From Escherichia coli (lineage in GTDB: Bacteria > Pseudomonadota > Gammaproteobacteria > Enterobacterales > Enterobacteriaceae), in NCBI RefSeq assembly GCF_044324875.1, contig NZ_CP172186.1: a stretch of DNA of 64,000 nucleotides; one strand, written 5' to 3'. Below, piece after piece: positions 35,301-38,300 of the stretch. The number at the start of each line of letters is the position of its first letter. Within the stretch, counting starts at the first letter, position 1. The position numbers are program-made.

Positions 35301-38300
35301 TCATCATAATCATATTACCCCTTGCTGGAATAATGTTATTTCTCTACTGAGTGAAGATGCGTCACTTGCTGGTGATACTTTTTGTAAGTGGCTTAATATT
35401 AATTATTCTTTATTGCCAAATGACTCGTTGCCTTTGACTGATGTTCAGTTCTCGCAATTACTTATTAAGGCTGTTACATCACCTCATATCAGTAAAGAAG
35501 CGTTAATAGCGATAACCATGGCATTTAGGATAACTCTTATTAATGTACCAGAAAACTTACCACTGAATAATGCTGCGGTACTAATCAAGCAAAAATGGCT
35601 GGCACCAACCAGTACTGTGTTTGAACAACTTGGTGATGCTGCCAACTTACTGATTTAGTGTATGATGGTGTTTTTGAGGTGCTCCAGTGGCTTCTGTTTC
35701 TATCAGCTGTCCCTCCTGTTCAGCTACTGACGGGGTGGTGCGTAACGGCAAAAGCACCGCCGGACATCAGCGCTATCTCTGCTCTCACTGCCGTAAAACA
35801 TGGCAACTGCAGTTCACTTACACCGCTTCTCAACCCGGTACGCACCAGAAAATCATTGATATGGCCATGAATGGCGTTGGATGCCGGGCAACTGCCCGCA
35901 TTATGGGCGTTGGCCTCAACACGATTTTACGTCACTTAAAAAACTCAGGCCGCAGTCGGTAACCTCGCGCATACAGCCGGGCAGTGACGTCATCGTCTGC
36001 GCGGAAATGGACGAACAGTGGGGCTATGTCGGGGCTAAATCGCGCCAGCGCTGGCTGTTTTACGCGTATGACAGGCTCCGGAAGACGGTTGTTGCGCACG
36101 TATTCTGTGAACGCACGATGGCGACGCTGGGGCGTCTTATGAGCCTGCTGTCACCCTTTGACGTGGTGATATGGATGACGGATGGCTGGCCGCTGTATGA
36201 ATCCCGCCTGAAGGGAAAGCTGCACGTAATCAGCAAGCGATATACGCAGCGAATTGAGCGGCATAACCTGAATCTGAGGCAGCACCTGGCACGGCTGGGA
36301 CGGAAGTCGCTGTCGTTCTCAAAATCGGTGGAGCTGCATGACAAAGTCATCGGGCATTATCTGAACATAAAACACTATCAATAAGTTGGAGTCATTACCT
36401 AACAAGAGATAAAATCCCCTTCTATATGCTTTCAAAAAATAGTATAAATCGTTATTCTGATATGAGTGATTTTATTCAATCCAATAATGAAACAACTCCA
36501 GAAAAGGCATTTATTAAAGAAGTTATGGGAACAGGGGACTGACACATGGATATAATAGAAAAAAGAATCACAAAACGACACCTCAGTGAAAGTAAATTAT
36601 CAGGTGTAAATTATTACAATTGTATATTTGAACGAATACAGCTTGACAACTTTAACTTTCGCGATTGTGAGTTCGAAAAATGTCGCTTCGTAAACTGCTC
36701 AATAAAGAATTTAAAACTTAATTTTTTTAAACTTATTGACTGTGAATTCAAAGATTGTTTATTACAAGGAGTAAATGCAGCAGACATTATGTTTCCCTGT
36801 ACTTTTTCTCTTGTAAATTGTGATTTGAGATTTGTTGATTTTATTAGTTTACGGTTACAGAAATCTGTTTTTTTATCCAGTCGCTTCCGTGATTGTTTAT
36901 TTGAGGAAACAGACCTTCGTAAATCTGATTTTACTGGTTCGGAGTTTAATAATACAGAGTTCAGACATTCTGATTTGTCTCACTGTGATTTTTCAATGAC
37001 AGAAGGTCTCGATATAAATCCTGAGATAAACAGGATCTTATCTATAAAGATACCACAGGAAGCAGGTTTAAAAATACTTAAACGAATGGGAGTGGTTGTA
37101 GGGGGATGAGGTGAGTAGACCCGCCGGTTGCCCGGACGGGCCCCTCCTCAGAACCGGACCTGCGGAACTACCGCATCCGGCTCCCGACAGATCAGTGTCC
37201 CCACACATATTTCAGAAAGAATGGAACATTGACTGAGTTCTCCATCTCGATGGGTATCCCAGCATTTTGAGAATCAGATCCAGCTTTTCTCATGTCATTG
37301 GGTGTGGGGTTTGAAGCCCAATGGAGCGGAAACGTACGCTAAGAAGCTAACTATATGATTTTAAGTCAATAAAGTCGTGGCGTTGTTAGGCAGGTTTACG
37401 TTGATTTGATTACCGAGTTTATTAACACTGAAAGTCCCTGAAACCGCATGGCTACTGGCATTGACGGGAAGAGTAAACAAAACCCTCGTTTTCTTTACTC
37501 ACCTCTTCTGCTCAAAAAATGAACTTAGCGTACGATCTCGTACGGTTGGGCCTCAAACCCCTTGTATCAATAGATTCAGTCAATGATCGGAAAGCAATGC
37601 CACGAATTTTCAGGTCTTCAATAATTCGGAGCAAATGTGAGAGTGAACGACCAAGTCGATCCAGTTTCCAGACTATCAGTACATCACCTTCGCGAAGTTC
37701 AGCGAGACAGGACTTAAGTCCCGGGCGATTATCACGAGCACCTGAAGCATGATCCTGATGTAAATGCCGGGGATCCACTCCGGCAGCAATCAACGCATCA
37801 CGCTGTAAAGCAACGTAAGCGTCAACGGAGCACCGTATTGACGCTTATTTATTGGTGAGTACTACGTTCCATGGCAGGAGTTCGTCAACTCGGTTGGAAA
37901 GCCATTCCGGCAGTACGCTCAGAATATGGCGCAGATACGCTTCCGGATCGATACCGTTCAGACGGCAGGTGCCGATCAGCCCGTACAGCAGTGCACCACG
38001 CTCGCCGCCGTGATCGCTACCGAAGAACACGTAATTTTTCTTTCCGAGACAGACTGCACGAAGCGCTCTTTCCGCTGTGTTATTGTCCGCCTCCGCCAGA
38101 CCGTCATCACAGAAGTTGCACAACGCAACCCAGTGCTTCCTGATATACCGGAACGCATCTCTCAGACGGCATTTTTTCGATAACGTGTGTTCTTTCTCCT
38201 GCATCAGCTTATACAGGGAAGTCAGTAGCGGTTTACTCTGCATTTGCCTGACCGCCAGGCGTTCAGACACCGGCAACCCGCGTATTTCGTGCTCAATGGC

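Follow-up and report, generated by a model that had tools for sequence, protein, structure and literature searches.

An intact mcbG gene beside IS1 and a remnant of mcbF on a large plasmid of Escherichia coli

We describe a gene for immunity to microcin B17 (MccB17), mcbG, in a stretch of 64,000 nucleotides from Escherichia coli (contig NZ_CP172186.1 of assembly GCF_044324875.1), hereafter the window. The gene is an intact open reading frame (ORF) at 36546..37109 on the + strand, with an ATG start, 187 codons and the N-terminus MDIIEKR, just as the initial annotation had described it. Its product (WP_062894304.1) is a pentapeptide-repeat protein, in which residues 13-153 match the pentapeptide-repeat domains of Pfam (PF13599 at 5e-9 and 3e-8, PF00805 at 1e-8). 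As the intact reference for comparisons we used the operon of plasmid p0.1229_2 (NZ_CP028322), in which genes for a microcin B17 TOMM precursor, McbB, a SagB/ThcOx dehydrogenase, a YcaO protein, McbE, an ABC ATPase and a pentapeptide protein follow one another in that order; they were named mcbA to mcbG by the authors of that plasmid. The window protein agrees with the product of the seventh gene at 185 of 187 residues (98.9%), the two differences being E17K and I108V, and the DNA from 36400 to 37562 is 99.66% identical over 1163 bp to the intact-operon locus L001. Because of the 98.9% identity we regard the assignment as settled: judged by its sequence, the window gene is mcbG. The initial annotation had written of a McbG/Qnr family. 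The first half of that label is borne out by this BLAST-type comparison, and the second is not, since the NCBIfam equivalog model for Qnr (NF033086) gives 52.3 bits against a cutoff of 240.

The gene had also been described as standing alone, without mcbA-F. A tblastn search of the window with McbA to McbF of the intact operon supports the absence of mcbA-E, and it contradicts the isolation: besides McbG itself, it finds McbF residues 197-243 directly 5′ of the gene. This remnant of the 3′ end of mcbF (36400..36542, +) comprises the last 47 codons, 197-243, at 100% amino acid identity, and the TGA stop, which is separated from the ATG of mcbG by the native gap of 3 nt; a possible ORF of 38 codons starts inside it at the ATG at 36426. 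Homology to the intact operon begins at 36400 exactly, which is the first base after a complete IS1 (35632..36399, +; 768 bp). The element was recognised by its terminal repeats, GGTGATGCTGCC... and ...GGAGTCATTACC, and by its ORFs (insA at 35687-35962, insB frame at 35881-36384), and it is annotated as IS1 or IS1A in related plasmids. On its other side IS1 truncates the 3′ end of a plasmid-backbone ORF, called pcar or hypothetical in different sources (35191..35631, +), which is unrelated to mcb and is found on 408 PLSDB plasmids; the placement of IS1 between mcbG and an unrelated truncated ORF had been noted correctly from the start.

The flanks of IS1 thus come from unrelated genes, pcar on the left and mcbF on the right, and no target-site duplication of about 9 bp is found next to the element, the adjoining sequences being GAACAACTT on the left and TAACAAGAG on the right. 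The length, the terminal inverted repeats and insA/insB are all as in IS1, and the target duplication of a simple insertion is missing. Therefore, this IS1 does not represent a simple insertion, and the arrangement indicates that the operon from mcbA into mcbF was lost by an IS1-mediated adjacent deletion or by IS1-IS1 recombination. What has been removed from the locus is mcbA-E, codons 1-196 of mcbF and the promoter regions of the operon, which are reported to map 5′ of mcbA and within mcbC. Since the mcbF stump keeps its native spacing to mcbG, this mcbG is what remains of a full operon and was not acquired independently.

The ribosome-binding site of mcbG has remained in place. A Shine-Dalgarno-like AGGGGA lies at 36533..36538 (+), 7 nt 5′ of the ATG. 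The same hexamer occurs in L015, an orphan locus of another type described below, whereas the intact-operon reference L001 has AGGAGA; the change (window 36535) is silent in the penultimate codon of mcbF, a Gly codon, and slightly weakens the Shine-Dalgarno match. In our own reading of the repeat register, E17K and I108V both occupy position i-1 of their pentapeptides. As to the fold, a single-sequence AlphaFold2 model of McbG has a mean predicted local distance difference test score of 31.8, too low for a fold to be read from it; sequence matches to the structures of QnrB1 and AlbG suggest a right-handed quadrilateral β-helix. The mcbG alleles of the window and of four further loci (L001, L004, L014 and L015) differ at three nucleotides in 564 bp, G49A (E17K), A322G (I108V) and G557T (G186V); all three changes are nonsynonymous and none is synonymous, with too few sites for a test. 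A more diverged McbG-like protein of Salmonella enterica (P0004; 186 residues, on contigs of up to 157 kb) falls into one cluster with McbG at the 90% level, and its termini are visibly different.

The window is colinear with plasmid pCh101 (chicken faeces, Russia) over positions 1-17767 and 33953-53797, at 99.6-99.8% identity. This closest complete relative of the host plasmid is of IncK2/Z type, MOBP/MPF_I, and carries an IncFII-type repA as well. A complete mcb production/immunity operon is found by tblastn neither in the window nor in the whole 156 kb of pCh101, which holds only the mcbF stump and mcbG; the orphan state that had been proposed from the window is seen there across an entire replicon. 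The module formed by truncated pcar, IS1, truncated mcbF, mcbG and a truncated resolvase gene recurs in pCh101, Br_112_kylling p1 (Brazil) and nine assembly contigs, at 99.8-99.96% identity except in one contig (L005), which has 97.0% identity and many gaps. The identical McbG protein is annotated on both named plasmids, the IS1 junction is also covered by the chicken-meat plasmid CP070395, and the recorded sources of the large plasmids with the module are chicken-related. In the assembly collection, the identical protein occurs in 499 index blocks, mostly contigs under 5 kb; such short contigs are expected, because the gene is boxed in by repeats.

How often does mcbG occur without its operon? 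A PLSDB megablast search with window positions 36390-37250 matched 211 plasmids, and in most of them an ABC-transporter gene precedes mcbG. Our frequency counts were made in 5,426 complete E. coli genomes. At a coverage of at least 80%, mcbG is present in 134 records (131 genomes), mcbA-E in 102 records (101 genomes; 112 records and 111 genomes if any match is counted) and the segment joining the 3′ end of mcbF to the start of mcbG (window 36370-36700) in 116 records (114 genomes), while the IS1 junction as in the window is found in two records from two genomes. Orphans account for about 20 of the 134 mcbG-bearing replicons, roughly 15%, and are mostly avian. Records with an mcbG 99.8-100% identical to the window allele number 20, all on plasmids of 130-384 kb and mostly from chickens or other birds, whereas the allele at 99.6% is borne largely by plasmids of about 70 kb (a few are larger), mostly of human origin, with an intact operon in every one inspected. 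In the chicken strain Ch1 both situations coexist: pCh101 has the orphan, and a 72.6-kb IncFIA/FIC plasmid, pCh102 (L014, NZ_CP127317.1), has the complete mcbA-G with an I108V+G186V allele, so that the strain holds two different mcbG alleles. Therefore, "orphan" describes the replicon and not always the cell.

The IS1 type is not the only truncation of the operon. In one assembly (L004; GCA_025410425.1, DAJJID010000027.1, 6472-8564), the last 20 codons of mcbD are followed by intact mcbE, mcbF and mcbG, and this immunity-only mcbEFG cassette is preceded by a PAS/MCP-type gene and by a transposase and resolvase of the Tn3 family. The mcbG allele is E17K+I108V, as in the window, and there is one mismatch to the window over 1163 bp. 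Another type is represented by pGF43-A and five sampled relatives (L015, 5610-6564; L020-L024, 2610-3564), with the order IS91, mcbF fragment, mcbG (I108V only) and IS1414. The mcbF fragment, annotated as a hypothetical protein of 120 residues (WP_225556432.1), covers residues 91-185, after which about 137 bp have been lost internally at a GGGAAAA microhomology. These plasmids come from chickens (China, Laos, Switzerland), a black kite (Pakistan) and one human urine isolate; in several of them IS1414 is cut by an IS3-family element, and mcbG is intact there. Since the IS1 type and the IS91 type each keep mcbF segments that are lost in the other, neither derives from the other, and by comparison of the loci there are at least three independent mcb truncations that retain a full-length mcbG. 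The retention is not universal, as shown by a plasmid of a pig isolate, HCP4S3_I4 (E. coli; NZ_JBWDPW010000003.1), on which mcbG is truncated at its 5′ end (query 228-564) and, about 21 kb away, the mcbA-E query is matched over its initial ~416 bp only, covering mcbA and the start of mcbB.

Downstream of mcbG, the native DNA common to intact-operon plasmids extends over 37110..37562, and homology stops at 37562 for both L001 and L004. Within it is a solitary terminal inverted repeat of 38 bp (37306..37343, +; GGGG...ACGCTAAG), which is probably of the Tn3 family, by its likeness to the Tn3 and γδ repeats; it is a single copy, with no partner in the 64-kb window. A fragment of a serine-recombinase (resolvase) gene follows at 37512..37793 (-), identified by its ORF, by PF00239 on the corresponding product and by the annotation "Recombinase family protein, incomplete" in relatives. 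These two features agree with the Tn3-type debris that the initial annotation had seen after the gene. Beyond the IS66 and resolvase debris, an intact vapBC pair (PIN toxin and antitoxin; 38540-39183, -) is kept in all relatives of the module.

Upstream, a piece of 644 bp at 30416..31059 carries an fdtC-like acyltransferase gene (30597-31049, +) and is 98.3% identical in DNA to L001 4217-3574 (98.7% in amino acids). In pMccB17, fdtC adjoins mcbA as its native divergent neighbour (PMC10912980). The piece was considered as the other edge of a deletion in situ and rejected, as it is inverted relative to mcbG, lies 5.5 kb away with IS629 and IS66 elements between, and is absent from pCh101; at most it hints at a scrambled segment of an MccB17 plasmid. 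The intervening IS66-family element (ISCro1-like, 31254-33952) sits inside an IS629-like element of the IS3 family (31060-35076), with ends GTAAGCG.../...CGGTTAC and a clean 8-bp target duplication, GTTTTTCC (31246-31253 and 33953-33960); IS629 is uninterrupted in pCh101 and in another relative, L010. The segment of ~16 kb at 17768-33952 that pCh101 does not have holds an IS2-like element and a raffinose-type sugar utilisation cluster (α-galactosidase, porin, GH32 hydrolase, transporter of the major facilitator superfamily and LacI-type regulator), and it is 99.6-100% identical to pieces of E. coli plasmids from chickens and hens.

The function of McbG is established by published work. The protein shields gyrase from microcin B17 and confers partial immunity on its own, full immunity requiring the McbEF pump besides McbG, and the mcb immunity genes shift quinolone minimum inhibitory concentrations (MICs) 2-8-fold (PMC6722960). 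When McbG alone was expressed from pBAD, the MIC rose >26-fold for MccB17, 4-8-fold for ciprofloxacin and about 4-5-fold for albicidin; the protection is specific for the cognate poison, which is MccB17 and not quinolones or albicidin, and is far weaker against ciprofloxacin than against MccB17 (PMC7897471). The immunity and the reduced quinolone susceptibility that the initial annotation had suggested for an orphan gene agree, in our analysis, with these experiments. Closest to the present case, Telhig et al. (2024) found two MccB17-resistant E. coli strains, C4743 and C4747, whose mcb genes are limited to mcbG and a fragment of mcbF, with a transposase at the flank (PMC10926693); both are chicken food isolates from Spain according to the supplement of that paper. 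They resemble the window in having mcbG without biosynthesis genes, mcbF-derived sequence, a transposase flank and a poultry origin, and the avian distribution of the orphans found here matches the chicken origin of these strains. More generally, immunity genes for bacteriocins can be kept or passed on while the toxin genes are not, and the host is then resistant and does not produce the toxin, as would be the case here; E. coli LR05, for example, has immunity genes for MccV and does not make MccV (cited in PMC10926693). The window differs from that example in that the mechanism would be protection of the gyrase target, unlike that of an MccV-type membrane immunity protein, and in that the origin by truncation at IS1 is visible in the sequence. 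The likeness to McbG of pMccB17 and p0.1229_2 is close, with 187 residues, a position directly 3′ of the mcbF stop and the same 450 bp downstream, including the Tn3-type repeat. However, the intact-operon plasmids are IncF plasmids of ~70 kb with mcbA-F and the promoters, whereas the window has IS1 in their place, the changes E17K and I108V and a large plasmid as its carrier.

We propose, as the probable reading of the locus, that mcbG is the last gene of an MccB17 operon, stranded by IS1 on a large, IS-riddled plasmid of poultry type, and that it would give immunity to MccB17 if it is transcribed. An IS1-associated deletion or recombination removed mcbA-E and most of mcbF and left mcbG, its ribosome-binding site and 450 bp downstream. 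McbG, presumably a right-handed β-helix, would then act on gyrase and release or prevent the poisoning of the cleavage complex by MccB17, with partial protection where the McbEF pump is lacking. Transcription could start at a weak hybrid promoter where IS1 ends or at a cryptic one within the AT-rich remnant of mcbF, or it could result from read-through. A transcribed gene would make its host immune to MccB17-producing competitors without the cost of production, and it might raise fluoroquinolone MICs slightly, by 4-8-fold or less.

Expression is where this proposal is most exposed, and several points weigh against it. Both regions in which the operon promoters are said to lie are deleted here. 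A standard promoter scan of the 146 bp 5′ of mcbG finds no σ70 match at or above 9/12, and the best match of a relaxed scan, a predicted, weak hybrid promoter spanning the end of IS1 (TTGGAG, 18 nt, TAAAAT; 36386..36415, +), has 8/12 matches; no claim about expression is made from either scan. Insertions of IS1 are generally polar, and the gene, with 32% GC in a window of 51% GC, is a plausible target of H-NS. The copies of the window type are nearly identical, and therefore the intact ORF may reflect recent spread alone. In strain Ch1, where pCh102 supplies the full operon, the orphan is redundant. Further, E17K may alter the function of McbG, and the strains of Telhig et al. may be of the IS91/IS1414 type and not of the IS1 type seen in the window. 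Finally, HCP4S3_I4 is a case in which mcbG did not survive whole.

On these grounds, the main alternative is that mcbG is a silent relic: McbG by descent, with its promoters lost and no useful expression, persisting through a recent IS1 event and hitch-hiking on its plasmid. The loss of the native promoter regions, the weakness of the promoter-like matches, the 99.8-99.96% identity of the window-type copies, which leaves little time for decay, the surroundings of mcbG, a graveyard of insertion sequences and gene fragments, and the existence of remnants with a truncated mcbG are all consistent with it. Against it stand the three independent truncation architectures, all with mcbG at full length, and the spread of the IS91 type across China, Laos, Pakistan and Switzerland, where insertion sequences have broken up its flanks further and left mcbG intact. 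In addition, the strains from chicken food that have no mcb genes besides mcbG and a piece of mcbF are phenotypically resistant to MccB17 (PMC10926693). We therefore hold the silent relic to be a substantial possibility, though a less probable one than a functional immunity gene stranded by IS1.

It is tempting to go further and to propose that the orphan gene is positively selected in the E. coli of bird guts as an immunity-only "cheater", with promoters derived from insertion sequences and with low-level fluoroquinolone tolerance, unlisted and missed by the curated Qnr models, as part of its benefit. The reason for this suggestion is that at least three independent truncations keep mcbG and that large plasmids of birds have carried the IS1 and IS91/IS1414 types to several countries. 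We regard it as rather doubtful.

Could the orphan be kept mainly for low-level tolerance to fluoroquinolones, in the manner of a Qnr protein and under quinolone use in poultry, and not for microcin immunity? The 4-8-fold rise in the ciprofloxacin MIC with over-expressed McbG (PMC7897471), the 2-8-fold shifts with the mcb immunity genes, the overwhelming association of the orphan alleles with chicken and bird plasmids and the name "fluoroquinolone resistance protein" that one source gives to McbG would all fit. On the other hand, McbG is specific for its poison, MccB17 well ahead of ciprofloxacin (PMC7897471), the orphan-mcbG strain C4743 is not listed as resistant to nalidixic acid or ciprofloxacin (PMC10926693), and the protein falls far below the cutoff of the Qnr equivalog model. 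A role of this kind as the main cause of retention is thus very unlikely.

Qnr (QnrB1 and others), AlbG and MfpA belong to the same repeat family as the window McbG, and the rescue of poisoned gyrase is a mechanism common to all of them (PMC7897471). The resemblance is distant, with E-values from 7e-12 to 3e-6 for the structures of QnrB1, AlbG and MfpA; the QnrB1 alignment runs from residue 25 to the C-terminus, and McbG, at 187 residues, is shorter than Qnr, at about 214-218. Besides the equivalog model, the Qnr subfamily models, which have cutoffs of 425-500, all give at most 42 bits. MfpA was rejected because its model, with a cutoff of 360, gives 34.5 bits, and membership of the AlbG type likewise, the AlbG structure 2xt2 being matched only at E 4e-11 over residues 14-154. 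The anti-phage effector HalA of Hailong was rejected as well, since its model matches a repeat stretch of 74 residues with 40 bits, where 250 are required, and the PADLOC defence models do not match McbG. That the gene encodes a different pentapeptide-repeat protein merely resembling McbG, as these weak family-level matches might suggest, is excluded by comparison of sequences, given scores so far under the curated cutoffs, the 98.9% identity to McbG and the 3′ end of mcbF still lying directly 5′ of the gene.

Earlier publications already cover the gene with its protein family and mechanism, as well as orphans of mcbG in MccB17-resistant E. coli from chickens. What is added here is the precise anatomy of the truncation as read from the sequence (IS1 at mcbF codon 197, with no target duplication), at least three independent remnants that retain the immunity gene, and a rough orphan frequency of ~15% with an avian bias. 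If expressed, the gene would make its host resistant to a gyrase-poisoning microcin of competing E. coli at no cost of production, an immunity cheater in the sense used above, and might produce a small shift in quinolone MIC that curated Qnr family models do not flag. Such a state would bear on the use of microcins, or of microcin producers, in poultry.

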